From Mobula hypostoma (Eukaryota), in contig NC_086097.1 in assembly GCF_963921235.1 (NCBI RefSeq), positions 147,314,001 to 147,378,000 on the forward strand: a stretch of DNA of 64,000 nt, given 5' to 3'. Position numbers and translations under genes: made by a program. This document shows positions 1,804 through 57,722 of the stretch, piece by piece. A model generated the notes under the pieces. The model had not been told where the DNA came from, made no database searches, and saw only the letters and a list, made by a program, of their open reading frames with translations. Positions within the stretch are counted from its first letter, which is position 1. Every line of letters begins with the position of its first letter.

Positions 1804-1841
1804 CAGTCCTGACGAAGAGTCTCTGCCTGAAACGTCGTCTG
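1804..1841 (+). ncRNA. Minimal type I hammerhead ribozyme motif in a PLE terminal repeat (repeat extends to ~1903)
   Basis: CAGTC-CTGACGA(1809-1815)-stem II-GAAAC(1829-1833)-GTC-GTCTG; catalytic core intact, stems I and II partly mutated. Confidence 0.7.
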
Positions 1842-1909
1842 TACCTCTTCCTAGAGATGCTGCCTGGCCTGCTGCATTCACCAGCAACTTTGATGTGTGT
1901 TGCTTATAC

Positions 1910-2730
1910 CTCTCCCCACCCTGTTACTTGTAAAAATGCCATCCTTTTCTCTCAATTCCTCCATCCCCACCCCATCTGCTCTCGGGATGAGGCTTTGCAT
2001 TTCAGAAAGAAGGAGATGTCCTCCTTCTTCAAAGAAAGGGGCTTGCCCTCCTCAGCTGCATCTCTTCCATTTCATGCATGTCTGCCCTCACCCCATCCTC
2101 CTGGTCTCGCCCCCTGTGTATCGGTGAGACCCGACATAGATTGGGAGACTGCTTCACTGTGCACCTATGCTCTGTTCTCCAGAGAAAGTGGGATCTCCCA
2201 GTGGCCACCCATTTTAATTCCACTTCCCATTCCCATTCCAAAATGTTAATCCATGGCCTCTTCTACTGTCGCAATGAGGCTACACTCAGGTTGGAGGAGC
2301 AACACCTTACATTCCATCTGGGTAACCTCCAACCTGATGGCATGAACATCGATTTCATGAACTTCTGGTGATGGCTCCCCCTTCATCATTCGCCATCTCC
2401 TTTTCCCTCTCTCACCTTATCTCCTTGCCTGCCCATTGCCTCCCTCTCGTGCTGCTGCTCCTTTTCTTTCTTCCATGACCTTCTGTCCTCTCCTATTAGA
2501 TTCCCCCTTCTCCTGCCTTGTATCTCTCTCACCAATCAACTTCCCAGCTGTTTACTTCACACCCCACCCCCCCCTTGGTTCCACCTATCACCTTGTGTTT
2601 CTCCCTCACCTCCCCCCACCTTCTAACACTGACTTCTCATCTTTTTTTCCCAGTCCTGCTGAAGGGTCTCATCCTGAAACGCCGACTGCTGCCTGGCCTG
2701 CTGAGTTCCTCCAGCATCCTGCGTGTGTTG
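1910..2730 (+). mobile_element. Penelope-like element 3' fragment (RT C-terminus, GIY-YIG endonuclease, terminal repeat)
   Basis: KNAILFSQFL..ICSRDE..EMSSFFKERG; LCIGETRHRLGD..HFN..EEQHL..LQPDGMN; pyrimidine-rich 3' region; mutated hammerhead repeat at 2651-2730. Confidence 0.85.
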
Positions 2731-4624
2731 CACTTTGTAAAATTGGTTGGAAACTCAAGATCACTTATACTTTTCGAAGTTAAAATGAAGTACATCATCA
2801 CTTGAAAAATGATTAACATACTTATACTATACAGAAGCAAGCTATTGGCCCATCCTGTCTCCCAGCAGAGAAATGTCATCAATCCCGTTCTCCCTCACCT
2901 TATTCTCCTTCAGCACTGCAACTAATTCTCTATAACGTGCCAATCAATTTCCCCTTTCTGGTCATTTTATCATCTAACCAACAGCAGGCAATTTACAGCA
3001 GCTCTCTACTTGTTTTCTTTTATAACAGCACAGAAAATGCATTAGTAAATCCTTTTTCCATTTCTTCTCCACGATCATGTACATGCCAATTAACATTTTA
3101 ATATGCTTCCACATATAGTTCACACATCAGGACCCATTGTGCTGATGAGCAATAGGAAACCAATGGTTGGATAACTCTTTAGTGTAAAGGGATGGGGACG
3201 GGACCTTTCTCAAATGCTGGAAGTAGCCCCCAGGATTTATCCTCTCATGTCAACACTAAGTGGATTTAGGGAATCCTATTTAATACAAAAAGTAGTTGGT
3301 CATGCAGTCTTTCTCCTCTTTTTCCTTCATGTTCTCAACATTTTGAAAGTAAAAAGCCACAATCCTGCATGCTGCCCAGATGAATGACCATTTTTATGAT
3401 TGCACACTAACTTGCGAGCTATCTTTTGGGACGTGCGCAGATTGATCGAACACAAAACCACACCCCTCTCCCTCCTCTCCATCCCTTATACTGTTAGTTT
3501 CAAAGCCTCAAAGACGTGTTAAGACATTGTACTCACTCAAGACTTCTGCCACTGGCTTGCAGGAGGAAAATGAGCTGCAAAGTATTCTAAGCAAGGTTTA
3601 TTTAGGTGAGACATTCTTATCATTAAATGCCCATCTGAAATGCAATTACCCCCATTCCCCTCACCATCTCACTGGCAGTTCCACCCCCAAAAGCCACCAT
3701 CACACAAAAAGAGATTTTCATTCTATGGTGACTTTCTCATTCTCAAAATTTGCAGCTCATAAAATACCCATCTGAAGTATGGACGCTGTAGTAATGCAGA
3801 TACCCAAATCCCTTTGCTGACAACATTATACTTAGCCAATAGTGCACAATTTGGTTTAAATACACTTTATTAATATTTTTCTCAAGGATGTTAACACCCA
3901 TTCCCAGCACTAATCAAAGCTACTACTTTAGTAAGTAGTTTAGCATGAAAATTCAAATGTGCTTCCGATAAACATGACAGTCATGATAAAAACCTATTTT
4001 AGCCATAGCCAACCCATTTGTTTTGATGGCAGTAACATTTCCCTCACTGTTTCAATGAGGAGATGACTAACCTGTGAAACTTATCTCTTGGGAGACAATG
4101 CTAATAATTGGTGCACGTTAATTAAAATGGAAATTAGATTGATTTGTTTCAGAAGATAACATCAGTCCAAATCTTGCAAGTACTATTGTTAATTAACCTC
4201 GTAACTTTCCAATATTTTACAATGTAACTGACAGCAAGTTTTGGATTTCCACCCAAGCCTGAAAGTACTGAATTTGCTGTCAACTTTTAAGAATCAGTTC
4301 CAACATGAGAACAGATGCAGGGACTAAAGCCGAGAAACTGGATAAACTATTTTATTTCCAGTGCTATGCTAACAATATCAATCCTACTCAGTGTAAATTA
4401 CATTAGGCATCATTTCAGGATGAAATCATACCAATCTAAACATTGGAATGGCAACTTCCAGTCACAATCCTTGTTAATATCCTAACCTTTTCCTAGAAGT
4501 CACTGGCAACATAACTCACATTTCTCCCTGTGTTGGCATCGGTTGAAGCTCGAACTGCTATGAAGCATTTTCAGTAGAACTGGCAGTAGGTTGTGCTAAG
4601 TTCTTTGCTTTTCTCTCCACAAAA

Positions 4625-5000
4625 GTATAAGAAATGGATGCAGAATCAGACCATTCAGCCCCTCATCTCTGCTGTGCTAAACAATAACATCACAATTGAT
4701 CTTTTATTTCGATCCCACTTTGCGGCACTGGACCCATACTCCTTGATTTGTTCTTAATACATAAAATCTGTTTACCTAGGAAGCTCTTACATAGAATAGT
4801 CCCAAGATTATTAACCCTGCAGATGAGGAAATATCTTCTCACTGCAATTCTGAACGTGCCTGATTTCCAAACTGTGACACCACCCCCCCCCCACCACCAC
4901 CACCATTTCTCAATACTCCAATCAGAGCTACCATCATACCTGTATCTATTCTGTTAAACCCCATAAGGATTTAATATATTTCAATTAAACTCTCCTTACT
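4625..5000 (-). mobile_element. Old CR1 3' end
   Basis: Degenerate match to the CR1 3' ends at 20716 and 33597 (ccattcagccc, gaaat.tcttctca). Confidence 0.5.
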
Positions 5001-5039
5001 GGATCTGCTTCCCCAAACTTTTAGGGAGCTTAAGGTAAG

Positions 5040-6364: not shown

Positions 6365-6482
6365 GGAGGAACTCAGCAGGCCAGGCAGCATCTATAGAAA
6401 AGAGTAAACAGTCGACGGTTCAGGCTGAGACCCTTCATCAGGTCTAGCCTGCCTGGCCTGCTGTGTTCCTCCAGCTCTTTGT
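6365..6482. mobile_element. Short fold-back PLE terminal repeat inserted in Rex1
   Basis: ggaggaactcagcaggccaggcag ... ctgcctggcctgctgtgttcctcc inverted pair; minus-strand CTGATGA..GAAC(C)GTC. Confidence 0.75.
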
Positions 6483-7242
6483 GAGGTGGAGGTGTGGGTT
6501 TTATGATAAACTCTCAGTGGTTCTCCAATGTGGCAGTTTTGTTGAACTCATGTTCTCCCGACCTTGAACACCTAATGGTCAAATGCCTTCCATTCTATTT
6601 ACCCAGGGAGTTATCCTCCACAGTCCTGTCCACGGTTTATATACCACCAACAGCCAACTATAATCAAGTGCTTGAGATACTGAATAATGCTGCCTCCAAA
6701 CAAAAAACAGTTCATCTCAACGCATTTCAGATCATAGTCTGGGACTTCAACAAGGCTTGCTTTAAGAAAACTCTAACCAATTACCAGGCAAAGGAGCCGC
6801 TATGAGATTGCTTTGAGTCGGTGGACTGGGCCATGTTCATGGACTCATCTATGGATCTGAATAAATACACCATGGTTGTCATGGACTTCATTAAAACAGT
6901 TGTAAGTAAGTGTGTCCCTGCAAAATCATTCTTCTCCACCCCTGGATGAACCATGAGATCCACAGTCTGCTGGAGGGCCAGATCAGATGCATCCAAGTCT
7001 TGAGTCCAAGAAAGTTACAAGAGGTTCAGGTGTAATCTCTAGAAAGCCAATTTGTGGGCAAAGTGGCAATTCTGGGCTAGACTTGAATCAGCAAAGGATG
7101 CTTGACAGTTGTGGCAGAGCTTGAATGTTATCACCTCTTATAAAGTTAAATCAAGTGACACTGGCGACAACAGGGCTTCACTTCCAGGTGAGCTCAACAC
7201 CTTCTATCCTTGCTTTGACCAGCAAAAAGTGGAGGATCCATG

Positions 7243-7449: not shown

Positions 7450-8119
7450 CAAACTCCCACAGCCTCCAATGATCCTTGACTGACTTCGGTCTCTGAGGTC
7501 AACATGCAGGCAGTCTTCAGGGGGTGAACCCACAAAAAGCATTCAGCCCAGACGGTGTATCTGGTGAAGCACCAAACACCTGTGCTGATCAATTGGCTGG
7601 AGTGTTCACTGACATCTTTAAACTCTCGCTTCAGCAGTCCGAGGTACCTACCAGTTTCAAGTAGGCTTCAATTATACTGGGTGCCTAACAAGAATATACA
7701 AACCGGCCTCAATGACTATCGTCCAGTAGCACTTACATTCACAGTGATGAAGTGCTTTGAGAGGATGGTGATGAAATATATCAACTCCTGCCTGAGAAGT
7801 GACTTGGATCTGTTCCAATTTGCCTACTGGAGCAATAGATCCACAGCAGATGCCAACTCACTGTCTCTTCAGTCAACCCTGAAACATCTAGACAGCAAAG
7901 ATGCATACGTCAGGATGCTCATTATCGACTGCACCTCAGCATTCAATACCATCATTCCCTCAAAACTAATCAATAAGCTTCAAGACTTCGGCCTCAATAC
8001 CTCCTTGTGCAATTGGATCCCTAGTTTCCTCACTTGCATTACCCAGTCAGTTCGGATTGGCAACATCTCCGCCACGTTTGCAATTTGCAAAGGGAGATGC
8101 TAAGGTCAGAGGTATCCAA

Positions 8120-8835
8120 TGAGGACTGGCTCATGAACCTCTCTAGTTTCCTCCTCCTATTATCAATAATCAGCTCCTTGCTAAGAAGTTGTGGTCATAG
8201 CACCACTCAGTCAGATTCTGAATCTCCCTCCTATATGCTGACTCATCACCACATTTGATTCAGCCTTTGACAGTGGTGTCATCAGCAACCTTGATATGGC
8301 ATTGGAGCTGTGCTTGTGGTACATTTGTGCTGATGGAGATTGTGGAGGAGATGTTGTCTAGGGTTTGCAAGTGAGGAAACTGAGGATCCAATTGCACAAG
8401 GATGTGTTGAGGCCGAGGTCTTGAACTTTATAGATGAGTTTTGAGGGGATAATGGTATTGAATGTCAATCTGTATTCAATAATGAGTATCCTGATGTATG
8501 TACCATTACTGTCCAGATGTTCCAGGGCTGAGTGTCAAGCCAGTGAAATGGCATCTGCTGTGGACCTGTTGTGCTGATAGGCAAATTGAAGCAGCTCGAA
8601 GGTGCTTCTCGAGCAGGATTTGAGGTGTTTTATCACCAGCCACTCAAAACACCTCATCACTGTGGATGTAAGTGCCACTGGACAATAGTCATTGATCCAG
8701 GTTACCACGCTCCTCATAGACACCGGTATAGTTGAAGTCTGCTTGAAGCAGGTGGGTACCTCTGACTACCAAAGTGAGAGGTTAAAGACTGCAGTGAATA
8801 GTCCAGCCAGTTGAACAGCACAGGGCTTTAGTACT
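8120..8835 (-). mobile_element. Rex1/Babar RT fragment
   Basis: NDYCPVALTSTVMRCFE..QFAYQHNRSTADAI. Confidence 0.8.
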
Positions 8836-8839
8836 TAAC

Positions 8840-9273
8840 CCTTTCCATAACTACCTTTAAACTATGGTATTATGGACAAATACCAAATTGTTTTGTCACT
8901 GACACATCCACCATCTACCCTGCTCCATTTCCTAAGATAAGGTTGAGTATTGACCTGTCACCTGTAGAACTATCTACATGTTTTTAAAAATGTTTTCTTG
9001 GAAGCACTGAACAAAATATGATCTAATTGAAGTCCCTTGAGCTAATGGGATCCCACTCAATACAGTGAAAGTTAAATTTCTCTATTCTATAACCTTATTC
9101 CTCTGGCACCTTTATGCAGTTTGGTAACATACTGTATCTGTTCTTCTAATTTCCACTGAATATAGGAAGGTCAACAGCATTATTTCAGAAAAAGTGACCA
9201 CCATCTCTTATTCCTAAATTTTATTCATATATTTTCCAGGGCATCATATTTAAGTACTGCTGCGATGTTCTTC
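8840..9273 (-). mobile_element. Old CR1 APE fragment interrupted by a younger CR1
   Basis: Degenerate APE region (aaagttaaatttctctatt); appears to resume at ~12377. Confidence 0.5.
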
Positions 9274-9279: not shown

Positions 9280-12200
9280 GGAGGCTCAATCAGCGGCAGG
9301 AGCGAGCACTTTAATGAGGTTACTCACAGTTCGGTGAAGCTTGTATAAAAGGAGGCAGAGGATGGGTTGGTTGGTGCACAAGTAGAGAAAGCTTATAGGG
9401 AGTTTGTGAGGAAGGATAGGCAAATGATAGAGTGAAGGTACACTCAGCCAGATGGTTTGAGATATGTCTATTTTAATGCAAAATGTATCATAAACAAGGC
9501 GTTTGCACTTAGAGCATGGATCAATATGTGCAACTATGACATTGTGGTCATTACAGAGACTTGGATGTCTCAGGGGCAGAAATGGCTGCTGAGTGTGCTG
9601 GGCTTTAGATGTTTCGAAAAGGACAGGGAGGGAGGCAAAAGAGGTGAGGGTGTATGACATTGCTAATCAGGGATAGTATCATGACTGTAGAAAAGGACGA
9701 AGTCATGGAGGGATTGTCTACTGAGTCATTGTGGATGGAAGACATAAACAGGAAGGGGGCGATAACTCTACTGGGTGTTTTTTATAGAACAGAGACGTCC
9801 AAGAGCAGGTAGGGAGGCAGATTCTGCAACGATGCAATAATAATAGGGTTGTTGTGATGGGTGATCTTAGCTTTCCTAATACTGACTGGCATCTCCATAG
9901 AACAAGGGGTTTAGATGGGGTGGAGTTTGTTCAGTGTGTTCAGGGAGGTTTCCTGATGCAATATAAGCCAACTAGAGGAGAGGCTGTACTTGATCTGGTA
10001 TTGGGGAATGAACCTGATCAGGTGTCAGAGCACTCGGTGGGAGAGCATTTTGGAGATAGTGATCACAACTCTCTCTCCTTTACCATAGTGCTGGAGAGGG
10101 ATAGGAGCAGACAATTTGGGAAAACATTTAATTGGGGTAAAGGGAAATATGATGCTATTAGACAGTACCTTGGGACCATAAATTTGGAGCAGATCTCCTC
10201 AGGGAAATGCACAGCAGGAATGTGTCAAATGTTCAGGGAACATTTGCATGGCGTTCTGCATAGGTATGTTCCAATGAGGCAAGGAGAGGATGGTAGGATA
10301 AAAGAACCATGGTATACAAAGGATGTAGAAAATTCAGTTAAGAAGAAAAGGTTCCAAAAGGTTCAAGAAACTAGGTACCATTAGAGCTCTAGAAAATTAC
10401 AAGGGTGCCACGAAGGAGCTTAAGACTGAAATTAGGAGAGCTAGAAGGGGCATGAGAAGGCCTTGGCGAGCAGGATTAAGAAAACCCCCAAGGCATTCGA
10501 CAAGTACATGAAGAGCAAGAGGAGAAGACATGAGAGAGTAGGACCAATAAAGTGTGTGTGGAACCAGAGGGGATAGCAGAGGTACTTAATGAATACTTTG
10601 CCATGTGAAAATAGGACCAAGCAGGAGCGATAGTGGAAACACGTGCATGCAGTCAGAGGAGGTAGCAGAGGAACCTAATGAATACTTTGTTTCAGTATTC
10701 ACCAGGGGAAAGGACCTTGGCAATTGTGGGGATAACTTACACTGGACTGAAATGCGTGAGCATACAGGCTTTAAGAAAGAGGATGTGCTGGAGCTTTTGA
10801 AAGGTATAAAGTTAGATAAGTTACCTGGACCAGATGAGATATACTCCAGGCTACTGTGGGAAGCAAGGGAAGAGATTGCTGAACCTCTGGTGATGATCTT
10901 TGCATCATCAATATGAACAGGAGAAGTACCAGGTGATTGGAAGTTTGCAAATGTTGTTCCTTTTTGGAGAAAGGGAATAGAAATAATTCAGGAAATTATA
11001 GACTAGTGGGTCTTACTTAAGTAGTAGGAAAGTTGTTGGAGAAGATCTTGACAGGTAGGTTTTATTAGCATTTGGAGAGACATAATCTGATCAGGAATAG
11101 TCAGTATTGGTTTGTCAAGGGCAAGTCATGCCTTACGAGCTGATTGAACTCTTTGAGGATGTAACAAAACAGATTGATAAAGGTAGAGCAATGGATGTAG
11201 TGTATATGGATTTCAGTAAGGCATTTGATAAGGTTCCCCATGCAAGGCACATTCAGAAAGTAAGGAAGCATGGGATCCAATGAGACCTTGTTTTATGGAT
11301 CCAGAATAAGCTTGCCCACAGAAGGTAAAGAGTGGTTGTAGATGGTTCATATTCAGCATGGAGGATGGCGACCAGTGATGTTCAGCAGGGATCTGTTCTG
11401 GGAGCCTTCCTCTTTGTAATTTTTATAAATGACCCCGGTGGGGAAGTAGAAGGGTGGGCTAGTAAGTTTGTTGATGACACAAAAGTTGAGGGTGTTGTGG
11501 ATAGTCTGGAGGGTTGTCAGAAGTTATAATATAAAGAACTGGGCTGAGAAGTAGCAGATGGAGTTTAACCCAGATAAATGTGAAGTGGTTTATTTCAGTA
11601 GGTCAAACTTGAACACAAAATATAATATTAATGGTAGACTCTCGGCAGTGTGGAGGATCAGCAAGATCTTAGGGTCTGTGTCCATAGAACACTCAAAGGT
11701 GCTGTGCAAGTTGACATGGTGTTAAGAAGGCATATGGTGTGATAACCTTCATCAACTGTGAGATCGAGTTCAAGAACCATGAGATAATGTTAATGCTATG
11801 TAAGACCTTACTTAGACCCCACTTGGAGTACTGTGTTCAGTTTTGGTCATATCACTACAGGAGGGATGTGCATACTAAAGAGAGAGTGCAGAGGAGATTT
11901 ACAGGGATGTTGCCTGGATTGGAGAATGTGCCTTATGAGAATAGGTTGAATGAATTTGGCCTTTTCTCCTTGAAGTGACAGAGGATGAGAGTTGACCTGA
12001 CAGAGGTGTAGAAGATGACAACAGGCATTGATTGTGTGGATAGCCAGAAGCTTTTTCCTACGGCTGAAATGGCTGAAACGAGGGGGCAGAGTTTTACGGT
12101 GCTTGGAAGTCGATACAAGAGGGATGTCAGAGGTAAGTTTTTCACGTAGTGAGTGGTGGGTGCATGGAATTCACTGCCGGTGACGGTGGTGGAAGCGGAT

Positions 12201-13145: not shown

Positions 13146-16100
13146 GGACTCCTCCCCTCTAGCCGACTCCTGATGGTCCTAACTGCTAGAGAGTCAATGA
13201 TGGTCGTCAGGGATGAGAGACAGATCCAAGATTGCTCCTACAGGAACCTAGTGCCGTTCCTCAGGTCCGAATCCTTCCTAGTCCACAAGGTATCGCCAAA
13301 TACCCTGAACAGCTTGTGAATCCAAAATTCTTCTCACAGTGAAGACCTGTTCCCATCGGCAAAACCTGGGTGGTGGCGGGACTGATGGCAATAAGGCTGA
13401 AGGGCTGGTATTCACAGGCTTTAATTTGGAAATGTGGAAAGTGGGATTGATTTTGAGGGTCTTGGGGTGTTGCAAGGTGAGGACATCAGATTTACTTTCC
13501 TGAGAACCTTGAAGGGCCCAATGAACTTGGGCACCAATTTCCTAGCAAGAGCTGTTGCCCAGGCTACAAATCTGGTTCCTGTCTTCTCTTATGGTTTAAC
13601 CTTTATTTCAGCCCTCCGAATAGAAGCTAACAAAATCTCCCTTGCCCTAGTCATTAATGTTTGCAGTGTTAAATGAGATCATCAGCTGCAGAAAGCCCTA
13701 CCTCAGACACCTGCTCAGGAAAGAGTGGCGAAGAATACCCAGATTGGTATTCCAAAGAGAACATCCTGTGCACCAAATGCCATAAAGTGTTGTGGGTGAT
13801 CTTTGCCCACATCTAATGGTTGCACCACTCATTCCATCTTTCAGAGGCCAGACATCTTAAGGTTCATTCCAAATCTTGGTTCACCCGCTCCACCTGGCTA
13901 TTGGACTGTGGGTGAAACCTAGAGGAAAGACTCAGTGTGGTCCTGGTCAGTTTACAGAATGCCCTCCAGAAATGTGACGCAAATTGTGGACTTTAATCTG
14001 GTACAAATGTTCATCAGAAAACTGTGTATCCTGAAGACCTGGTGCAGGACAATTTCAGCCATCTCCACTACAGATGGTAGTCTGTCCAAGGTGATCAACT
14101 TGCAGGCCTTCAAAAAGTGATCCACAATTACCATTACCATTGGAAGGAGAAAGACCTGTGACAAAGTCCACGGAGATGTGCACCCGTGGTCTGCCTGGAA
14201 GAAGAAGTGGTTGAGGTTGTGTTGCGAGGCTCTTGTTCCGGGTGCACACCTTACAAGCCTGCACAGGACTCCCTCACCATTCCTACTTCTCTTAATGAAC
14301 TCGAGTGTCCTGTCAATCCCTGGGTGAGCGGTCATTCTCGATGCATGACCCCATTGAAGAACCAGAGACCGGATGGAACTTGGAATGAATAGCTGACCCA
14401 AAGGGCTGTTCTGGCGAAAATCCCTCAGTGTCTGGGTCTTGCGAATAAGCATGTTGACTCCCCAGTAAATTGGTGCTTATCACTTTGGCTTGTGGCAAAA
14501 TGATGGTAGACTGCTCCTCTCATTTGTGTTTATCAAACTGACGGGGCAGGTATCTGGCTTCTTGTGCTTTGATCCCGGTCAATAGGTCAGGATGAAATTA
14601 AAATGGTTAAAGAAAATAGACCACCTGGCCTGTCTGGAATTCAGTCTCTTGGCCTCCTGAATATCAGCCAGTTTCCTGTGGTCTATCCAAATGATAAAAG
14701 AGTTCTTGGCCCTCTCAAGCCAAAGGTGCCACTCCACCAGAGCCAACTTTAACCACGAGCAGCTCTCTATTTGCAATGTCGTAGTTCACTTCTGCCAGGG
14801 ATAGCCACCTGGAAAAGAATGCACACAGGTGCAGCTTATTGTCCGAAGGTATCTGTTGAGACAACACTGCACCCATTCTGACATCTGAGGCATGAACCTC
14901 CACGGCAAAGGGAAGATCTGGGTTAGGTGCAACCAAAATGGGAGCTATCATGAACCCTGCTGTTTGAGCTCTGCAAAAGCAGCCTCCACTTTGGTAGTCC
15001 AAACAAAAGTACCTGTGGATCTCTTGGTTAGTGCTGTCAGTGGAGCAGTCACTGAGTTGAAGTTTCTGAAGAACTTTTGGTAAAAGTTAGCAGATCCCAG
15101 GAATCATTGGACTTGTTTCACACTGGATGATTGTGGCCAATCTCCAGCTGTGTGTCTTACTAAGATCCATCTTAAGATTGTCATTAGAGATGATGAAACC
15201 CAAAAATGGAATGGTGTTTATGTGAAATTCAGACTTCTCCACCTTGACGTAAGGTCCATGATCAAGAAGCCTCTTCAGGATATCTCTCACATGAGTGATT
15301 TTCTCCTCCATGGACTTCGAGAAAATTAGGATGTCATCCAAGTAGTTGAAGGCATACTTTTGGGGAGCATCCCAGAGCACATTGTTTATAAAAGCCTAGA
15401 AAAATGCTAGCGCATTCACAAGGCCTAAGGAAATGACCAGGTACTCATAGTGCCTTGCCGATATGTTGAATGCCATGTACCACTCGTCACCCTCCTTTAT
15501 GCCAGCCAGATTGTATGCACTCTGCAAGTCTAGCTTCAAAAATATTCTTGCCCCTTGGGGAATCTCGGAGACAGTGTTCATGAGTGGAAGAGGGTAGTGA
15601 TTCTTGACCATTATGCGATTTTGTCCTTTGTAATCAATGCATGGCCATAGGCTCACATCCTTTTTCTGTACAAAGAAGAAGCCAGCACCAGCTGGAGAGG
15701 TAGAGGGTTAAATGAATCCCAAAGGAGTGAAGTTCCATAACACTTGTCTCCGGGCCTGAGTGCACGTATAATCATCCCTGCTGAGGACAGGTATCAGGCA
15801 GAAGATCAATAGCACAGTCATAGGATCAGTTCAGTGGAAGAGTTAAGGCCTTTCCCTTGTTGAAGACCTCTTCCAAATCCTTGTACATGGAATGGATTTC
15901 TACTGGCTTGGGTTCTGCAATTACCCTCAAATCTTCCTCTGAGAATGACTCCTGAGGCTCCTTAGGTAACGGGGGTGATCCGGCAGATCCCAGTGTCTAT
16001 CCATCAGTTCACAAGAGTCTTCAGTGAAAACAGAAGCCAAATCACAGTCCAAATCCTTGTCCTCAGACATCAGCAGCAAGGTTCAACAAATAGTCATTGT

Positions 16101-16445: not shown

Positions 16446-16984
16446 TGTGATGAGAGTCCTCGATGAGGAATGTTTGGACTCAAATGCTGGAGTATCCGAG
16501 GCTAGGATCGAGAACTGAGAACAAAACAAAATGCAAGATGATATGCAACACACATCAAAGTTTCTGGTGAACGCAGCAGGCCGGGCAGCATCTCTAGGAA
16601 GAGGTACAGTCGACATTTCAGGCCGAGACCGTTCATCAGGGTCTGATGAAGGGTCGCGACCCGAAATGTTGACTGTACCTCTTCCTAGAGTTGCTGCCTG
16701 ACCTGCTGCATTCACCAGCAACTTTGATGTGTGTTGCTTGAATTTCCAGCATCTGCAGAATTCCTCGTGTTTGCGCAAGATGATATCCCTGGTTGGGCTT
16801 ATGATTGAGCACAGTTACTTCATTCAGGTGCTCTTTAAATACTCAGTTCTTGGCACTCAAAACATGATTGCCAATTCGTGGAATGGTCCTGAATCTTTAA
16901 AGGGACCGTGCAAGTTAGCCATATTCTGGGGAGTTAAAATGTCCAAAGCTCAGAAGCTGACACATTTGGGTGCATGTTGTAACA
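16446..16984 (-). repeat. 5' LTR (contains a PLE insertion)
   Basis: tgtgatgagag...ttgtaaca; followed on the minus strand by ATGGACCCA (MDP gag-type start). Confidence 0.85.
16545..16774. mobile_element. Fold-back PLE terminal-repeat insertion with two hammerhead cores
   Basis: 95-bp inverted arms 16545-16639/16643-16737 plus tail; 12-bp TSD gcaagatgatat 16533-16544/16775-16786. Confidence 0.88.
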
Positions 16985-20629: not shown

Positions 20630-21364
20630 CTTTAAACAAGATTGATAAATGCTATCACTATGGAGGTGTGCTTTTACTGATAAGTCATCAATTAAAAACA
20701 TTAACTCAGTTCAGACTATAAGACATAAGAGCAGAATTAAGCCATTCGGCTGATTGAGTCTTCTCCAACATTCCATCATGGCTGATTAATTAGACCCCTC
20801 AACCCCATTCTCCTCCCTTTGCCTCATAACCTTTGATGCCTTGACCAATCAAAAACCCATCAATCTTCGTTTTAAATCTACCCAATGACTTGGCCTCCAC
20901 AGCTGCCTGTGGCAGTGAATTCCACAGATTCACCACCCTCTCACTAAAGAAATTCAGGCTCTTCTCTGTTCTAAATGAATGTCCCTCAATTCTGAGGCCT
21001 TGCCCTCTGGTCCTTGACTGTCCCACTATATGAAATATCCTCTCCATATCTACTCATTCTAGGCCTTTCAATATCCAATAGGTTTTAGTAAGATCCTCCC
21101 GCATTCTTCTAAGCGCCACTGTTTCCAGGCCCAAAGCCATTAAATGCTCTTCATGCATTAACCCTTTCATTCCTGGACTCATTCTCGTGAACCTCCTCTG
21201 GACCCTCTCCAAAGCCAGCACATCTTTTCTTAGATAAACGGCTCACAATTCTCCAATGCTGCCTGACCAGTGCCTTACAAAGCCTCAGTATTACATCCTG
21301 CCTCTTGAAAAGGATCCTAGTAATACATTTGCTTCCCTTACCACTGACTCAACGTGCAAGCTAA

Positions 21365-27630: not shown

Positions 27631-28804
27631 CAATAAGCCATCAATTACTCAATACGTATATTTATGCCTCAGATAGAACTATGAAATTTCTATGTCTGAA
27701 CAGCAAATATCAAAACCAACAATTTTTGAGCTGTATGGTTTGAGGACCCGGCATATAAGAAAGTAACATTAACATTATGGGCCAGATTACATTTTAACAG
27801 TTAATTTATGTGCAGTCAATCTCCCATAAATCAATGGGCATAAACATCACTCTGTTACTATGTTCCACCCTTGTTTATAAGTTGATGCCAATTTTAAAAT
27901 TCTTCCTCCCTACAGTTCCTTTCCTTCCGATTTGAATTATTACCTGTATTAGGGTCACTAATTCTATGGAAGAAATAAGTATGGTAGTTGTGTTTTAATT
28001 AGCCATAGTGTAATCATTTAAATTATTGATTGTGATTTTAAAGTGCTTTTTATTGTTTTTGTAATAATTATGTAATAATCAGAGACATTTGAAAGCACTT
28101 CCAAGCCCTTTGAGACTGCACACTGTCAATAATTTTAGGATTAGGGTTGGAGATATCTCACAAAGTGCAGCAAACAACAAGCAGTGCTTTAGCCTCAGAC
28201 ACTGCATATTCTTTTTCAAAACATAATCCAAAATTCTGCCAATTCATGGACAAGCCGTGCCTTAACTCTACTTATTTGTTTTAGTGAATATTCCTTCATA
28301 TTATTCTCTGTCTAAAGTTCCAATTGTCTAAGCACATGTTTAACTCTTGATAATCTGAGTTAGAACCACTTCCTGATTTTGAATCTGAATGACCTGGCTC
28401 TACTTCGGTGCCGTTGTCCTGGACTCACTGACAGATGAAGACATTGCAGCATCACTATCTATTTAATAATTCAGATCAAAGAATGTAGCCCATATTCACA
28501 ATTAATCATTCAAAACATGAAACCATTCATCCTTTGGAAACTGATATTTACCACATATAACTTGCCAAGAAATTCCAAAAACTTCCAAGAAATTTGCTCC
28601 TTCCTCATCTCTCCCATTATGTAAGACCTGATACTGTAAAACATCAGTAGTTTGGCACTCATTGAAATTTGAAGACACACCAGCATATGTTCCAGACTGT
28701 TCAATATTACTCCAATTAATATACCAAATTACTTTTAATTTACTTTTATTTTTGATGGTACATAGCCAATGGAAATGGTGGGTTTAAAGAGAATATGGAA
28801 GTTG

Positions 28805-28992
28805 TGTTTCTCTCTCCCCTTCCCCCAAATTTAAATCTACTCCTCAACTGTTTTCTGAGTCTTGCTGAAGTGACTCAGCCCAAAATATGAACTGTACTTT
28901 TTTCCATAGATGCTGCCTGGCCTCCTGAGTTCCTCCAGCATTTTTTGTGTGTGGCTTGGATTTCCTGCGTCTGCAGATTTTCTCTTGTTTGT
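28805..28992 (+). mobile_element. Degenerate PLE terminal repeat
   Basis: atagatgctgcctggcctcctgagttcctccagca...ctgcagatttt; hammerhead core decayed. Confidence 0.7.
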
Positions 28993-29071
28993 AATTGGAT
29001 CACCGCACACTGCAAAGACTCTTCCTGGGATGCCTGCCCTGAAGAAGTTTAAATCTTCTCTTCAACAGGAG

Positions 29072-29600
29072 TTCAGAATCAGAATTAGGTTTATTATCAC
29101 TGGCATGTGACATGAAATTTGTTAACTTAGCAGCAACAGTTCAATGTAATACATCATCTAGCAGAGAGAGAGAAAAAATAATAATTAAACAAGTAAATCA
29201 ATTATGTATATTAAATAGATTATTTAAAAATGTGCAAAAACAGAAACACAGTATATTAAGAAAATGAGGTAGTATCCAAAGCTTCAATGTCCATTTAGGA
29301 ATTGGATGGCAGAGGGGAAGAGGCTGTTCCTGAATTTCTGAGTGTGTGCCTTCAGGCTCCTGTATCTCCTACCTGATGGTAACAGTGAAAAAAGGGTGCT
29401 GGAGGTCCTTAATAATGGACGCTGCCTTTCTGACACACCGCTCCCTAAACATGTCCTGGGTACTTTGTATGCTAGTGCCCAAGATGGAGCTGACTAGATT
29501 CTGCAGCTCCTTTTGGTTCTGTGCAGTAGCCGCTCCATACCAGACGGTGATGCGGCCTGTCAGAATGCTCTCCACAGTACAGCTATAGAGGTTTATGAGT
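29072..29600 (-). mobile_element. Rex1-type LINE 3' end
   Basis: ESILTGRITVWYG..RKAASIIKD; tcagaa tail. Confidence 0.8.
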
Positions 29601-29619
29601 GTTTTTGAGTTCAGTGAAG

Positions 29620-29940
29620 CCCTCGCTCACTGCTCCCCTTCTGTGATCTCTGTTGCTTTCTGACTCTTCCACCACATTCTTATCCAGACCTGCTACTACA
29701 CCCATGTATCCTTCCTGGGAATGTGCCTTCACTGCCAGCTTGTACCACATGACTTCCAGATTCTTTATCAAGCTCCCCCTCTCTGGTTTCACCTACCACC
29801 TTGTGTTTCTCTCTCCCCTCCCCCACCTTTTAAATCTACTCCAGTCCTGCCAAAGGGTCTTGGTCCAAAACGTCGACTGTACTTTTTTCTATAGATGTTG
29901 CCTGACCTGCTCACTTTCTCCAGCATTTGTGTGTGTTGTA
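29620..29940 (+). mobile_element. PLE 3' region with decayed hammerhead repeat
   Basis: Similar to 2430-2730; cagtcCTGCCAA..AAAACGTCgactg. Confidence 0.7.
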
Positions 29941-31056
29941 TGGAAATCAAGGGATTGCTGAATTTAAAGGGAGTGGGGGAAATAGAGTTATGATGACTTT
30001 GGAAATCCCAGTTGATTATCAGATTAATAGAATGTTACAGTGTCACAATCCTGTTACCATTTGAATACAATTCCTTGATAGATCTTCACATTCAACTCTT
30101 GGTTACCTTGATGACAACCTTCACTGTGGTCTCAGTTGATCCCAGTTGATGCATCTTGATTTTTCAACATTAAAAATAACCTTTCTGCAATAATTTGCTC
30201 CTTCAAATGTGCAGCAATTCAATGAATTTTGACAGAATAAATATGGCAATTGAAAATGATCATGAAAACACCACAGAAATAAAATGCAAAACAGAACCGT
30301 TTCAGCTGACAGCTCATACCAAAGCACAACTTGATTAATTGAACTGTTTTCCAAATCTGAACTTCCCGTGGCATTTATTGCACACAGGTTCTGTTCTTCA
30401 ATCTATTGGTAGACATAATGGGTGTTTATGCTTTCTAAATTTCAAACAATGGCTTACTTTAAAAATAAACTTCTGTGTGGTGAATGGTTGGTGTCAGTTG
30501 ATCTCAGGAAGCTTTGCAACAACATTTTAACTTGGGATCATTGCAATGAATGAAATTTATTTCGGTCAGTACAAACATAACATTCATTCATTCATTCATT
30601 CGAATCATTGGAAGAAGCTAGTCTTAAAAATTTAATTGAATGATTGCTGGTTTCTGATAGAAAGACAACATTAGGAGTTAGAGGAATTGTTTAGTGTTTT
30701 GTTTTTTATTGTGCTTCCAAGGTGGGGAAAATGTCAGTGATTGTTACTTAAGTCTTCCAACTTGAGAATGCCACTCCTCTGGCACCGATTTTCAGCACCA
30801 GGAGGGCAGCCAACTGTCCCTGTTATATTTACAACCTATATGACTGTGACTGGGCTAGTTTGTGGTCTGGGTTATGCTTCAGGTCTGTATCTACAGAAAA
30901 TTAATTGAAGTTGCCAAAACTCATTTCAGATGGGATTCATACGTCCACAGAGACATTCAGTTTATAAACCTGCTTGGGATTCAAAGCATTCAGTGTTGAG
31001 TGTGTGGAAATTTAACTAATTGATTTGATCTAGACTGCACTTACTCAACCAATCTT

Positions 31057-32279: not shown

Positions 32280-32320
32280 ACTCTATCTCTTTATCTATCT
32301 ATCTCTCTGTATACCTCTCT
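32250..32320. repeat. (CT)n/(TCTA)n microsatellite
   Basis: Direct reading of the sequence. Confidence 0.85.
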
Positions 32321-47235: not shown

Positions 47236-49590
47236 ATAGAGTGAACAGCATCGAAATAGGCCTTCAGCCCAACTCATCCATGCTGATCATGGTGGCCACC
47301 AATGCCCATGTTTGGCCTATATAGCTCTAAACTCCTCTTATTGATATACTTGCCCAAATGTCTTTTAAATGTTGTTATTGCACATGCCTGAACAACCTCC
47401 TCTGGCAGCTCTGTCCATATACAGCTCACTATAATACCTCCACAATCTCTTCATCCACCTTCTTTAAAATCCTGTGGTGTATTCCATCTGGTCCAGGTGA
47501 TTTATCTACCTTCAGACCTTTCCATTTCCCAACAACCCTCTCCTTTATAATGCACATACTTCTGCCCCCTGACTCTCTTGAACTTCTGGCATACTGCTAG
47601 TGTCATCCACTGTGCAGACTGATGCAAAATACTTATTCAGTTTGTCCACGACTATTGCAGCATTGCCCTTTTGACATCTTGCTATCTTGATTGGCTTGGT
47701 AAGCAGGATAAGAGTTGGCAAACAGTGTTCAATTTGGGTGTACAAAGTGTTGCATTTTGGGAAGTCTCAGCAGAGTAGGACTTGTACAGTGAGCATTCAG
47801 TACTTGGAGGTGCTATGGAGCAGAGTAACCTTGGAATACAAGTACATAGTTCACTGAAAGCAGCACTACAGTTTAAGAAGGTGTTTAGCAAGCTGGTTTC
47901 ATCACTCAGTGAGTACAGGAGGTGGAATGTTATGTACTGTGTTTAGTTTTGGTTACCCTGGTATAGGAAAGGCAACATTAAACTTTCAAGGGTGCAGAGG
48001 AAATGCTGAAAGAACTCAAAGAATTAAGATATGGGAAGAGTTTGCGCAGGCTAGGACTTTATTCCTTGGAACATAGGAGACTGAGGAGTGACCCTATGGA
48101 GGTGTATAAAATCATGAGGAGTTGAGATACCGTGAACACATCCAGCCTATTTCCCAAGGAAAGGGAGGCCATAGGTTTAAGATAAAAGGTGAAAGACTTA
48201 AATTGGACCCAAAGGACAAGGAGCCACACATGCGGCTGCTTAACAAATTAAGAGCCCATGGTATTGCAGGAAAGATACTAGCATGGATAGAGCATTGCTG
48301 ATTGGCAGGTGGAAAAGAATGGGAACAAAGTCTTTTCTGGTTGGCTGCAGGTGACTAGCAGTGTTCCACAAGAGCCTATGCTGGGACTGCTCCTTTTTGT
48401 GCTATATCTCAGTGATTTGGATGGCAGAATTGAAGGCTTTGTGGTTAAGTTTGTGGACAATACAAAGACAGTTGGAGGAGTAGGTAGTTTTGAGGAAGTA
48501 GAGAGGCTACAGAAGGGCTGAGACAGAATAGGAGAATCGGCAAAGATGTGGCAAACGGATGACAGTGTCAGGAAGTATATGGTCATGCACTTCGGTAGAA
48601 GAAATAAAAGTGAAAACTATTTTCTAAATGGAAAGAAAATCCAAAAATCTAAGGTGCAAAGTGACCTGAGAGTCCTTGTGCATAAGTCCTTGTGATAAAC
48701 ACAAGTTACCCTAAAGGCTAACTTGTATGTTCGGTTGTTGGAGCAAAAATAAAATGTGATGTTACCATTCATTTCTTGAGGACTAGAATATAAAAGCAAG
48801 GATGTAATGTTGCTGCTTTATAGAATGTTGGTTAGGCCTCACCTGGAGTATTGTGAACAGTTTTGAGTCCCTTAACTGAGAAAGCATGTGCTAAATTGGA
48901 GAGGGTTCAAAGGAAGTTCACAGAAATTATTCCAGAATTGAACGGCTTGTCATATGAGGAGTGTTTGATGGCTCAGAGTGTGTATTCATTGGAATTCAGA
49001 AGAATGAGGGGTAACCTCATTGAATTCTATTGAATGTTTAAAGACATCAATAGAGTGGATGTGGAGAGGACATTTTATACAGTGGTAGAGTCCAAGACCA
49101 GAGGACACAGACTCAGAATAGAGATATATTTCATCTCCTTTTAGAATGGAGATGAGGAGTTTCTTTCGCCAGAGAGCAGTGAGTCTGTTGAATTCGGTGT
49201 CTCAGGTAGCTGTGGAGGGCAAGTCATTGAGTTTAAATCAGAGATTGGATTTAAGTCAGAGGCTGATAGATTCTTGATTAATCAGGACATGAAGGGATAG
49301 AGGGGGAAGGCAGGAGACTGGGGGTGAGAGGGAAAATCAATCAGCCATGATGAGATGGCAGAGTAGACTCAATCGGCCAAACGGCCTAATTCTGCTTAAG
49401 ACCTCTGGAATTTTTGATAACCTTTTTCACAGTCTATGATATCACTAATTAGTGTCATCTGCAAATTAACTAAATATGCCTTATTTATTCACATCCAAAT
49501 CATTTATATAAAGAAGAAACAACAAAGGTCCCCGCACCGACCCCTGTGGCTCACCACTAATCACAGATCCCCAGTATAAGAAACAATTTT
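47236..49590. mobile_element. Cluster of about five CR1 fragments in both orientations
   Basis: Minus 47236-47650; plus 47670-48215 and 48218-49395 (SSVPQEPMLG, KFVDNTK, 3' UTR); minus 49400-49590. Confidence 0.8.
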
Positions 49591-51120: not shown

Positions 51121-51154
51121 ATCTCTGCTGCAGTGGCTAATACATATAACTATT

Positions 51155-51766
51155 ATAGGTGAGACATTGGTCAGACCACACTTGGAGTATTGTGAACAGT
51201 TTTGGGCCCACTAAGAAAAAACAGCACATTTTATCTTAGTTAAGGTGCCCAAACCTGTTCATAATACTCCTACCATTGTGCTGCCATTGGAGACAGTCCA
51301 GAGGAGGTTCATGAGAATGATCCTTGGAATGAAAGAGTTAATGTATGAAGAGTATTTGATGGCTCTCGTACTCACTGGAGTTTAGACGAGTGAGGGGGAC
51401 TCTCAGTAAAACATTATCAAAATTGGAAGATCTAGATAAAGTTGAAGTGGAGAGGATGTTACCTATAGTGGGGGAGGCTAGGACCAGAGGACACAGCCTC
51501 AGAATACAAGAACATACCTTTAGAACAGAGATGGGGAGGAATTTCTTTAGCCAGAGGGCAGTAAAGCTGTGGAGGACTGAAGTTATTGAGTATATTTAAA
51601 CCAGAGGCTGATAGGTTCTTGATCAGTAAGGGCATGAAAGGTTTTGGGGAGAAGGCAGGCGAATGGTATTGAGAGCGATTAAAAATCAACCATGATGGAA
51701 TGGCAAAGCAGTCTTGATGGACCAAATGGCCTAATTCTGCTCCATTGTTTTATAGTTTTATGGTCT
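51155..51766 (+). mobile_element. CR1 3' portion with a small internal inversion
   Basis: RPHLEYCEQFW, RTRGHSLRI, CR1 3' UTR; inverted duplicate at 51222-51270. Confidence 0.85.
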
Positions 51767-52879: not shown

Positions 52880-54480
52880 CTATGGCAAGCCACATAATAC
52901 CAATAGGTTGACCTGGTCCAACCACTTCGGTGCTCCAGCCAAGAAAGCACATCAGCTCCTCTACTTCCTCAGGATACTAAGGAAATTCAGCATGTCCCTG
53001 TTAACCCTCACCAGTTTTTATTGATGCACCATAGAAAGCATTCTATCCAGATGTATCACAGTTTGCCATGACAACTTCTCTGCATGTGATTGCAAGAAAC
53101 TACAGAGAGTTATGGAAATCATAAAACCATAAGACATAGGAGCAGGATTAGACCAATTGGCCCATTGAGTCTGCTCCGCCATTCCATCATAACTGATTTA
53201 TTATCGCTCTCAATCCCATTCTCTTGCTTTCTACCCATAAGCTTTGGTGCCTTACTAATCAGGAACCTATCAACCTCCACATTAAACATACCCACTGATT
53301 TGGCTCCATGGTTCCACAGATTATCCACCCTCTGGCTAAAGAAATTCCTCCTCATCTCTGTTCTAAAGGGATGGCCTTGTATTCTAAAGCTGTGCCCTCT
53401 GGTCCTAGACTCCCACTATAGCAAACATGCTCTCCATGTCCACTCTATCTAGGCCTTTCAACATTAAATAGGTTTCAATTAGATCTTCCCTCATTCTTTT
53501 AAGCTCCAGTGAGCACAGGCCCAGAGCCATCAAACACTCCTTATACATGAACCCTTTAATTTCCAGGATCATCCTTGTGAACCTCCTCTGGATCTTTTCC
53601 AATGCTAACACATCTTTTTTTTAGATAAGGGGCCTAAATCTACTTAAGACACCAAGTGCTGCCTGACCAATGCCTTACAAAGTTTCAACATTACATCCTT
53701 TTTTTTAATATTCCAGTCCTCGCGAAATGAATGCTTACATTTCATTTGCCTTCCTTACCACTGACTCAGCCTGCAAGTTAATCTTTAGGTAATCCTGCAT
53801 GAGGGCTCACAAGTCCACTTGCACCTCTGATTTCTGAATGGGGGCTTCCTTTACAAAATAGACTATGCCTTTATTACTTCTACCGAAGTGCATGACCATA
53901 TAATTCCTTCCACTGTATTCCATCTGCCATTCTTCTAAACTTTCTAGGTCCTTCTGCCCACTCCCTACTTCCTCAACACTATCTGCCCCTCCACATTTCT
54001 TTGTATGATCTGCAAACTTGGCCACATTTGGACACAGCTCATCACATCATGGAAACCAGCCTCCCCTCTATGGACTCTGTCTATACTTCTCACTGCCTCA
54101 GTAAAGCAGACAGCACGGTCAAAGGTTCCAACAACCCAGATATTCTCTCTTTACCATGGGGCAGAAGATGCAAGAGCCTGAACGCATGTTCCACCAGGAT
54201 CGAATATAATTTCTATTCCACTATTTTACAACTTTTGAATTGTTCCTTGCTATGATAAGATGGACTCTTGACCTCATAATCTCATACCTTGTTGTGGTCC
54301 TTGTACCTTATTCTCTGTCTATACTGCACCTTCTCTGTAACTGTGGCATTATATTCTACATTCTCTTAATAATTTCCCCTTTGAACAACTTTGATGTACC
54401 TATATTTTGTAATTATCTCTATGGATGGCATGCAAAACAAAGTTTTATCACTGTATCTCTGTACACATGACTTTCATAAG
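52880..54480 (+). mobile_element. Rex1 3' portion, split by a CR1
   Basis: gagagttatgga ... tggacacagctc junction; LPWGRRCKSL. Confidence 0.75.
53117..54028 (-). mobile_element. CR1 3' portion nested in Rex1
   Basis: KFADHTK, IQRRFTRMI, RRNFFSQRV; 4-bp repeat tgga at both junctions. Confidence 0.88.
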
Positions 54481-55860: not shown

Positions 55861-56199
55861 GGAACTCAAGCATTTCAAACTCCATTCACGACATTCTTGG
55901 AGTTGGCAGCCATGTTTTAGAAAGCCCCTGTATCCCATGTAGACAATGCTTGCCTCCTCTGTGCAGCTGAAATATGGATACAAGTTAAAGCTTTAACTTG
56001 GATGTCACTGCCTTCTTCTTACTCTGTGGCTTTGCTTCAGCCTCTAAACCTCAGTTCCCAGCCTCCTTGCTGGTCTTCCTCTTCTGCTGCACATGGTATC
56101 GGATTGTGCAGCAAACCATAATGAAGTTTCCTCATCTGATGCAGACAATGACATGAGGCCTCCAGCAAACCAATAGTACTTCTCTTTATTATTGTTCTG

Positions 56200-56545
56200 G
56201 CTTTTGCATAATTCTTGTAGCAACTGGTATGGAACAACAGGGTGGATCTTGTACTTAGCAGCAGGCTGAGGGCCAGTTTCTATCCCACTGTTATCAAACT
56301 CTTGAACAGACCTCTTGTACAATTAGATGGTCTCTAGGCCTCACAATCAATGTCGTCATGATCTTACACTTCATCGTTTACCTGTTCTGCAGTCACTGCA
56401 ATCTTTTGGTAGCTTTTACACTTTATTCTGAACTATTATTGTTTTAACCTTACCTAGCTCAATGCTTTGATCTGTATAAACAGAATGCAAGGTAAGTTTT
56501 TCACTGTATCTTGTTACATGTGACAGTATTACACCAATTCCTATA
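56200..56545 (+). mobile_element. Rex1-type 3' UTR
   Basis: Similar to 54200-54480 (ttttcactgtatct.g.tacatgtgaca). Confidence 0.55.
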
Positions 56546-57094
56546 CCAAATACATGATAATGAACTCACTGTTTTGCTCCCCGTCACTACCTTCCCTCGG
56601 TAAATACTGGATTTTGAACTTATAATAAAATATATAATTTTAAATATTTACACACAATATGTCTGGCCATCTTGCAAGCAATTTTTGTTCACACAATGGT
56701 CTACATGTAAGTTGCAACAAACAGACATGAGGTGACATTTTCTTGTGTGGACTGAGTCATAAATTACCTTGTCTTATGTCTTAATTAGGCAATGAAACGC
56801 CAATCTGATGCTGCAGCATAATTCTACAAATCAAGCTACTCATTGTGGTGATCGGCGTATCTCCTTAGGGATTAAAGTACCACGAAAACCAACACAGATG
56901 GCCCACAGCAAGTCCACTAACTCTGGTGCCATAATTCCCTGAAGGAAATTATTCTTGTCTGCTTAATTCTAAGTAATGTGTTGGTGAATTTTCAAAGTGC
57001 AGTTTAATTAAAATTAAGATAGATAATCTGACAGGACCAATTTGAACCACAGCCAAATAAACGGGAACTGTTATATTAAATTGAATTCTACTGT

Positions 57095-57240
57095 CAGCTG
57101 TGGCTCAGGCAGCAGTATTCCCATCTCTGAATAATTCCAGGTTTACATCTCCCTCCAAAGACATACGTAAGTTAGGCTGACATTACAGAGATTCTTGAGA
57201 TGGTACGGCAATGACAGAGGTGATATCTTTGGATGGCAGC
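57095..57240 (+). mobile_element. DeuSINE (SacSINE1-like) 5' relic
   Basis: gctgtggctcag..tctctga..taggctgaca..gaggtg..tctttggatg. Confidence 0.45.
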
Positions 57241-57444
57241 CCCACCGGTACTGCCCATGGACCTCTAACAGCATGTATTCAACAACATTTTTTTAATATA
57301 AAAAAATTAAAGAATGAGGTCATATTCATTGCAACAACAATCAACAAATAAATGTAAAAACAGTGAAAATAAAGTAATAAAGATATTAACCATTTATTTT
57401 CACTTATCATTTAGGTGAACGGCAACTGAAGTTAATTCAAGCCA

Positions 57445-57722
57445 GCAGCACACATCAAAGTTGCTGATGAACGCAGCAGGCCAGGCAGCATCGCTAGGAA
57501 GAGGTACAGTCGACATTTCAGGCCGAGACCCTTCGTCAGGACTAACTGAAGGAAGAGTTAGAAATCTCTTACTAAATCTTCCTTCAGTTAGTCCTGACAA
57601 AGGGTCTCGGCCTGAAACGTCGACTGTACCTCTTCCTAGAGATGCTGCCTGGCCTGCTGCGTTCACCAGCAACTTTGGTGTGTGTTGCTTGAATTTCCAG
57701 CACCTGCAGAATTCCTGTTGTT
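57445..57722. mobile_element. Fold-back PLE terminal-repeat insertion with two hammerhead motifs
   Basis: 117-bp inverted arms 57445-57561/57572-57688 (7 mismatches by eye), ~34-bp tail; TSD ttaattcaagcca(g) 57432-57444/57723-57735. Confidence 0.9.

Follow-up and report, generated by a model that had tools for sequence, protein, structure and literature searches.

Degraded terminal-repeat fragments of a Penelope-like element in the ray Mobula hypostoma carry a minimal type I hammerhead motif

The stretch of DNA analyzed here (the window) comprises 64,000 nucleotides of the Mobula hypostoma genome (assembly GCF_963921235.1, contig NC_086097.1, positions 147,314,001 to 147,378,000 of the forward strand), and it contains dispersed copies of a 38-nt motif that a preliminary description had interpreted as a hammerhead ribozyme carried by a Penelope-like element (PLE). 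We consider it very likely that these copies are inert fragments of the pseudo-long terminal repeats (pLTRs) of a high-copy PLE from a cartilaginous, ray-like fish, and that the pLTRs of the source element carry a minimal type I hammerhead, which would be cut as a dimer, probably with the help of a protein. Positions are those of the window.

At least eight dispersed copies had been reported, and all eight (8/8) were recovered at their places, each with 2-7 differences from the consensus proposed earlier. They occupy the following registers, to which two arms absent from the preliminary description are added:

1804-1841, + strand, 38-nt motif
2651-2688, + strand, 38-nt motif
6409-6446, - strand, 38-nt motif
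16607-16644, - strand, 38-nt motif
16638-16675, + strand, 38-nt motif
29842-29879, + strand, 38-nt motif
57507-57544, - strand, 38-nt motif
57589-57626, + strand, 38-nt motif
28857-28894, + strand, additional core-bearing arm, decayed
18902-19011, - strand, additional old, strongly decayed pLTR arm (nhmmer E 2e-6)

Three further stubs without the core begin no earlier than the predicted cut (6449-6483 +, 57998-58062 - and 58813-58869 -), and self-alignment together with the profile search gave a total of 13 arms in 9 insertions. The arms scored 75-155 bits against a profile made from them, a comparison that is partly circular, and the reversed window gave one match (E 0.34); BLAST between arm pairs returned E values down to 1e-40. 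A strict descriptor of the minimal hammerhead ribozyme (min-HHR), requiring a helix I of at least 3 bp, CUGANGA, an optional extra base, a helix II of at least 4 bp and GAAA-NN-UH, matched one site in the window (57544-) and none in 60 first-order Markov shuffles. A very weak profile match at 58931-59011 - (E 0.28), which may be a still older pLTR arm, was left uncounted. A motif scan gave one chance bacterial match in genome contigs and none in viral contigs, and 32 metagenome loci found with a downstream anchor were rejected as chance matches, none reaching more than 28 nt into the repeat.

The motif fits the published min-HHR consensus position by position, which upholds the earlier proposal of a minimal type I hammerhead with a palindromic helix III that is expected to act as a dimer. 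Numbering follows the motif at 57589 (C3 57594, extra A 57601, G10.1 57602, 11.1 57613, G12 57614, C17 57621). In the majority of the nine core-bearing motifs a CUGANGA box is followed by one extra base before 10.1; the box is intact in 5/9, with A6C in three and G8A in two (one motif has both). Helix II, of 4 bp and opened by G10.1, is paired in 86% of the cells of this nine-motif set, and helix I, of 5 bp, in 80%. GAAA, a loopless palindromic 15.2-16.2 and an NUH cut site are also present, and in this part only CpG-type variants reach at least 4% in contigs from 4 of 24 public sequencing runs, which were aligned to the 175-nt stretch 57571-57745 (13328, 24604, 5141 and 5535 contigs); two of these runs are RNA only by guess, and the contigs show neither strand nor ends. 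The CAGTC/GACTG helix I described earlier stands as a 5-bp, type I helix, but 16640- and 16643+ are without its 5′ strand because the inversion junction sits there and both arms are broken at C3. It had also been stated that every copy is substituted, often in CpG fashion. Substitutions are indeed found in each copy and 9 of 21 private changes are CpG transitions (a tally over the eight listed copies that excludes positions 7 and 11.1, the shared A6C, the first base shared by the 57.5-kb pair and the truncated helix I strands), but U11.1 is a subfamily trait and not a product of CpG decay, and A6C was probably inherited. The extra A, finally, had been likened to that of the chrysanthemum chlorotic mottle viroid (CChMVd) hammerhead, which is probably the canonical hammerhead with an extra base that has been cited in connection with min-HHRs. 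It is no viroid-like oddity, given that a base between 9 and 10.1 belongs to the published min-HHR consensus; together with the palindromic 15.2-16.2 it is a general trait of the motifs reported in 2014 from metazoan PLE pLTRs (PMC4209133). In those studies min-HHR monomers did not cut, and dimers cut weakly (PMC4209133; review PMC6765202).

The assignment of the motif to a Penelope-like repeat was confirmed: it sits in both pLTRs of a relic at 28.8-29.9 kb, and in the 3′ pLTR of another at 1.9-2.7 kb. The parts of the two relics, which involve an open reading frame (ORF) with reverse transcriptase (RT) and GIY-YIG nuclease regions and a 3′ untranslated region (UTR), and the arm that precedes the first of them are:

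1804..1905, + strand, pLTR arm of subfamily A, starting at the helix I 5′ strand, tail-less
1906..2371, + strand, remnant of a 5′-truncated PLE ORF with the RT thumb region followed by the GIY-YIG nuclease, frameshifted (tblastn)
2372..2735, + strand, 3′ UTR and 3′ pLTR of the 1.9-2.7-kb relic, subfamily B
28802..28997, + strand, 5′ pLTR of the second PLE relic, subfamily B, with the decayed motif 28857-28894 (A6C)
28910..29770, + strand, 5′ part of the PLE ORF, open over 28910-29076 and resuming to ~29770, remainder deleted
29775..29945, + strand, end of the 3′ UTR followed by the second relic's 3′ pLTR, whose motif (29842-29879) shows A6C, G8A and G12A

The ORF remnant at 1906..2371 is 81% identical over 84 aa to the Mobula hypostoma protein P0001 (tblastn, E 6e-39), and the other named matches are from Hypanus sabinus (4 matches among 106 candidates), so that the proteins too point to a ray as the probable host. 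About 128 codons of linker are deleted near 2114, between the RT thumb region and GIY-YIG. One copy had been said to follow an RT/GIY-YIG ORF; the 2651 motif does lie ~280 nt past the GIY-YIG remnant, but the ORF is broken and retains the thumb and GIY-YIG with no RT core. This motif has A6C plus changes at 11.4 and 16.1, and a 20-nt deletion directly follows it. A search with the Mobula protein yielded 85 longer proteins among 3112 candidates, most of them with RT and many with GIY-YIG; full-length relatives carry RVT_1 and GIY-YIG, and no Pfam family scored on the ORF fragments of the window alone. In 61 of 89 compared proteins, including P0001, P0002 and P0004, a CX2-5CxxC motif precedes the YIG motif, and such a linker is a mark of Neptune and Nematis elements (PMC8557442). 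On these sequence matches the carrier is an endonuclease-bearing (EN+) PLE with a C-terminal GIY-YIG, the closest proteins having a Neptune/Nematis-type linker; this label is taken from the linker of related proteins, as the linker is deleted in the window relic and no named PLE is among the matches.

In the second relic (28802-29945) the 3′ side (29775-29945) repeats 28802-28960 directly with 73% identity. An ATG at 28910 lies 20 nt past the predicted cut of the 28857-28894 motif, and the ORF sequence from there to ~29770 matches the N-termini of full-length relatives (P0007, E 2e-7, and P0047, E 1e-7, in a 1.3-kb subject). This ORF is interrupted at 29077-29614 by a ~540-bp unrelated repeat; an 8-bp duplication lies at 29069 and 29607. 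In the source element each pLTR has a hammerhead that follows the GIY-YIG stop by ~280 nt and precedes by 20 nt an ATG leading into the ORF. At 1804, the tail-less subfamily A arm (1804-1906), whose motif has its core letters intact and helices I and II broken, is fused straight to the truncated ORF of the subfamily B relic; it adjoins a piece like a long interspersed element (LINE) at 1584-1790 (92% to 32038-32244), and no target duplication was found there.

At least three pLTR subfamilies are present in the window. The 3′ flank separates subfamily A (1804, 16640-, 16643+, 57544- and 57589+) from subfamily B (2651, 28857, 29842 and two stubs), and 6446- has a third spacer type. In the four runs CpG decay amounts to 2-13% at core sites, 2-14% in loop II and 5-18% downstream, a similarity that fits neutral decay after insertion. 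At position 11.1, C accounts for 74/55/14/26% of depth in the four runs against 8/10/1/2% for G12>A, the C/U shares being possibly biased since the reference carries U there. Because the share of C11.1 is far above that of G12>A, U11.1 is taken as an inherited subfamily trait and not as CpG decay, and most of the C/U variation at 11.1 separates subfamilies. Between 57610 and 57626, non-CpG variants reaching at least 4% are confined to 11.1 C/U and 11.4 G/A, both of which keep the pair (one-sided), whereas 8 variable sites fall in the 14 nt that follow.

The spacer 57627-57644 and its equivalents differ by subfamily, yet they are pyrimidine-rich and have AG directly before the ATG, resembling a splice acceptor; a second pyrimidine tract with YAG overlaps helix I. 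Helix I is also where an intron ends in the Penelope element of Drosophila virilis (PMC4209133). Two host-like protein models, P0090 (residues 173-208) and P0091 (residues 149-182), match 57584-57690 and contain a translated subfamily A pLTR as an internal segment, which starts just past the pyrimidine tract and the CAG that precede helix I and reflects either exonisation or a gene-prediction artefact. A protein frame conserved across A and B pLTRs was considered and rejected, the A frame stopping 16 codons after the ATG.

The remaining insertions and motifs that belong to the family are as follows:

6365..6483, - strand, short inverted insertion, arm 6365-6446 - joined head-to-head to stub 6449-6483 +
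16533..16786, arms on both strands, complete inverted-arm insertion with a 12-bp target duplication (16533-16544 / 16775-16786)
57432..57736, arms on both strands, complete inverted-arm insertion with a 14-bp target duplication (57432-57445 / 57723-57736)
57507..57544, - strand, sole motif passing the strict min-HHR descriptor, with U15.2 for C and G-U at 10.1-11.1
57589..57626, + strand, motif with G8A, used as the numbering reference
57998..58062, - strand, pLTR stub whose match starts precisely at the predicted cut (start ambiguous by ~7 nt)
58813..58869, - strand, pLTR stub starting past the motif

The motif pairs near 16.6 kb and 57.5 kb each represent one insertion, made up of two arms joined head-to-head. 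At 16.6 kb a tail-less arm (16545-16640 -) meets an arm with a ~35-nt tail (16643-16774 +), and both break at C3/helix I; at 57.5 kb the arm ~57446-57561 - is tail-less and the arm ~57562-57722 + carries the tail. Flank matches of these lengths arose by chance in 9 of 20000 random flank pairs for the 12-nt match and in 0 of 20000 for the 14-nt one. For six other insertions only matches of 7-10 nt with at most one mismatch were found when target duplications were sought, and these were not accepted. The start of the 58062 stub is ambiguous by ~7 nt because the other end carries the same letters, a possible target duplication, and the motif of the short insertion (6409-6446) has A15.1C. The window thus displays pLTR direct repeats, an inverted 5′-truncated arm, a ~35-nt tail on one arm and a target duplication of variable length. 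In PLEs at large the signature of insertion is an inverted truncated copy, a 30-40-bp tail and a variable target duplication (PMC8557442), and the tail has been traced to two RT start sites in an anole element (PMC11167929). Among the rows listed, the loose ends of contigs into unrelated sequence cluster behind 57687-57689 (runs X1 and X5) and 57723 (X20, X1 and X5), ~35 nt apart. In addition, one contig each in X1 and X5, and none in X19 and X20, passes from 57695 to 57622 and so returns to the exact base after the predicted cut.

How the source element would use its hammerhead can be outlined. In a transcript with two pLTRs, the two motifs would pair through the palindromic helix III and exchange their helix I strands, and the resulting double hammerhead would cut after C17, slowly and probably only when aided by the protein of the element. 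A slow, protein-aided cut is proposed because the lone motif folds, in computation, as a rod in which G5-A6-Y7-G8 is paired with 15.2-17. In the one PLE tested in vitro, the anole element PAc, cleavage needed the protein of the element and was dispensable for insertion (PMC11167929). Self-cleavage of a dimer after C17 is what we infer for the ray element, and processing of its transcripts by the predicted ribozyme, as put forward in the preliminary description, would go beyond what the evidence shows. The copies in the window should all be inert, because the best of them, 57544- (with the cut predicted between 57512 and 57511), would on read-through be locked in a hairpin of -232 kcal/mol, and the direct pairs 1804/2651 and 28857/29842 are both broken.

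Several results weigh against a catalytic hammerhead in this family. By nearest-neighbour calculation, in which tertiary contacts are uncounted, the active dimer has -14.7 to -19.9 kcal/mol against -21.6 to -29.0 kcal/mol for two rods, a difference that fits weak or protein-assisted cleavage as in the anole element. The predicted cut is spanned by 10 of the 13 arms, which implies a template that was uncut, or had been religated, at this point; the RNA that was reverse transcribed would have been mostly uncut at this site. Rfam covariance models found no hammerhead in the window or in 57490-57560 even with E values of up to 10 allowed, as might be expected because the motifs are without a helix III; the 13 weak Rfam matches in the window include none to a hammerhead, and those to microRNA precursors are the inverted arms. 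Two-sided covariation was seen in 0/10 pairs among the nine closely related, decayed motifs, and their structure score was not above that of column shuffles. The variant table spans 57607-57694 and has the CUGANGA box outside its range, and within it the block 57641-57659, outside the ribozyme, is equally invariant, so that conservation is not specific to the motif. Finally, the A6C lineage suggests an element that may spread without an efficient ribozyme.

A6C is common to 2651, 28857 and 29842 (three arms from two insertions) and occurs in 0/6 other motifs, and from this distribution it was probably inherited. In twenty contigs of run X1 the loose letters also terminate in this C6 core (agreement 0.45). 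The substitution is a known natural variant, with poor cleavage in Mg2+ but good cleavage in Mn2+ (PMC7151607). A profile search for translated pLTRs among proteins gave four proteins, three from the family and all three A6-type, and a word search for proteins with the B-type frame gave no match; neither result says anything on C6. As to the ends of the insertions, four arms (from three insertions) start 28-33 nt before the cut (P ~0.004 for a fixed 6-nt bin, ~0.1 over 25 bins), and among the joints listed 9/9 opposite-strand joints have one break at 57590-57602. The corresponding probability, 2e-6 under uniformity, is inflated, because the sequence shared with other subfamilies begins at 57590 and the reference's own changes at 57597-57599 cause alignments to be clipped at 57600. 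The clustered 5′ breaks in helix I-A9 are a lead rather than a result. The idea that fold-back priming at helix I causes the inversions was rejected, since the partner breaks lie at 57640-57686 and not at 57627. We tentatively raise the possibility, to which we give rather less than even chances, that a subfamily with inherited A6C was amplified beside A6 ones, that short insertions break by preference in helix I-A9, 20-33 nt before the scissile bond and not at it, and that the fold, or else a splice acceptor or start site that overlaps helix I, rather than the cut, sets the 5′ ends of the cDNA. If so, nature would have used this ray PLE family to test whether the ribozyme is of any consequence.

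A somewhat less probable reading than the last one, and on balance an unlikely one, is that the motif is vestigial or non-catalytic in the ray PLE and that the same letters serve the pLTR in protein binding, as a promoter, as a splice acceptor or at the start of the ORF. The C6 core in arms and X1 contigs speaks for it, as A6C strongly lowers cleavage in Mg2+ in two canonical hammerheads (PMC7151607), and so do the arms that span the cut, the pyrimidine tracts with YAG before helix I and before the ATG, and the anole element, whose insertion in vitro was unaffected by core mutants (PMC11167929). However, subfamilies A and C retain the full core, the subfamily changes in helix II keep pairing, and the class is conserved across metazoan PLEs and does cut in vitro, if weakly (PMC4209133).

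It is much less probable that the short copies constitute a separate non-autonomous family, similar to a short interspersed element (SINE) or a retrozyme, that begins at the ribozyme or close to it and depends on mobilisation in trans. Most arms are just 60-200 bp long, four of them start within 6 nt of one another at helix I/C3, and animal retrozymes derive from pLTRs (preprint 10.64898/2026.07.22.740005); but self-alignment of the window shows no tandem units, the 5′ ends are spread from -60 to +23 around the cut, two arms run on into the ORF, and inverted arms with a tail and a target duplication are ordinary truncated PLE insertions. A chance likeness of a repeat to a hammerhead would account for the missing Rfam match and for the unremarkable fold z-scores of single motifs (-0.3 to -0.9), but it is effectively refuted by the PLE context and its probability is negligible: the core, both helices, the extra base, the palindrome, a U-rich 5′ flank and the position in the pLTR all fit the published class, and the shuffled sequences gave no descriptor match. 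Pieces of a PLE whose source pLTRs carry a min-HHR therefore remain the preferred account of the copies.

The family bears on the role of PLE hammerheads in general. It is a vertebrate family of very high copy number, its subfamilies are told apart by a core base (A6/C6) and by 11.1 (C/U), and many of its short insertions can be dated. It is therefore well suited to show whether cleavage of the source element is selected and whether cleavage shapes the ends of insertions.

Other repeats lie in the window. Fragments of long terminal repeat (LTR) retrotransposons were found at 13952-15086 -, 22357-23158 + and 63217-63756 - (RNase H with integrase zinc finger, integrase core, and SH3 with chromodomain), and LINE fragments (RT, AP endonuclease, zf-RVT) at 7528-8840, 9788-10384, 31524-31904, 32281-33380 and 61621-62352, of which 7563-8038 and 8366-8840 are inverted copies with 79% identity. 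A ~1-kb repeat family without a long ORF is present in at least five copies of 67-77% identity, one of which has received an integrase fragment flanked by direct repeats (21407-21935 / 23541-24094, 82%), probably its LTRs. Self-alignment places the copies at:

20713-21365, ~1-kb repeat family
24121-24675, ~1-kb repeat family
33597-34814, ~1-kb repeat family
48224-49396, ~1-kb repeat family
51277-51766, ~1-kb repeat family
53120-54026, ~1-kb repeat family

Compared with known systems, the motif is ordinary in kind, such motifs having been described in 2014, and the A6C lineage is the sole lead. A description in cartilaginous fish was not found in the literature covered, outside which lay most subscription papers and the repeat databases, and the supplements of preprint 10.64898/2026.07.22.740005 may hold the family; cartilaginous fish are likewise missing from the 56 aligned min-HHRs and the examined rows of Table S1 in PMC4209133. 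The non-LTR retrozymes of that preprint resemble the ray motif in having a type I hammerhead, in their derivation from pLTRs and in their occurrence in one chondrichthyan genome, but they are defined by tandem hammerhead units, which the window self-alignment does not contain. The natural C6 hammerhead of phage Bcep176 (PMC7151607) shares A6C, but it is a full single hammerhead and not a dimer-type retroelement motif; among the min-HHR variants found in PMC4209133, U3-A8 is represented and the A6C lineage is not. Of the motifs listed in that work the nearest is the Neptune motif of Acropora digitifera, whose core is identical and whose helix II likewise has 4 bp, capped by a 4-nt loop. G10.1, a short helix II, GAAA, a loopless palindrome, a short helix I and a U-rich 5′ flank are common to min-HHRs, which are likewise mostly solo dispersed copies with occasional opposite-strand pairs, and the G-U at 10.1-11.1 is also seen in the cichlid, Xenopus 1 and Latimeria 1 motifs (PMC4209133). 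As for the carrier, Neptune and Nematis PLEs (PMC8557442) have the same order of RT, CX2-5CxxC linker and GIY-YIG, the inverted truncated arm and the tail. The Poseidon element PAc of Anolis carolinensis (PMC11167929) differs in belonging to a clade without the Cys linker and in having its ATG before the cut, whereas in subfamily B it lies after the cut, and its activity was measured, while the ray element is known here from sequence alone. The two elements are nevertheless alike in that the hammerhead is placed at the pLTR-ORF junction, two 3′ ends lie 30-40 nt apart, and the genomic copies come from uncut RNA.

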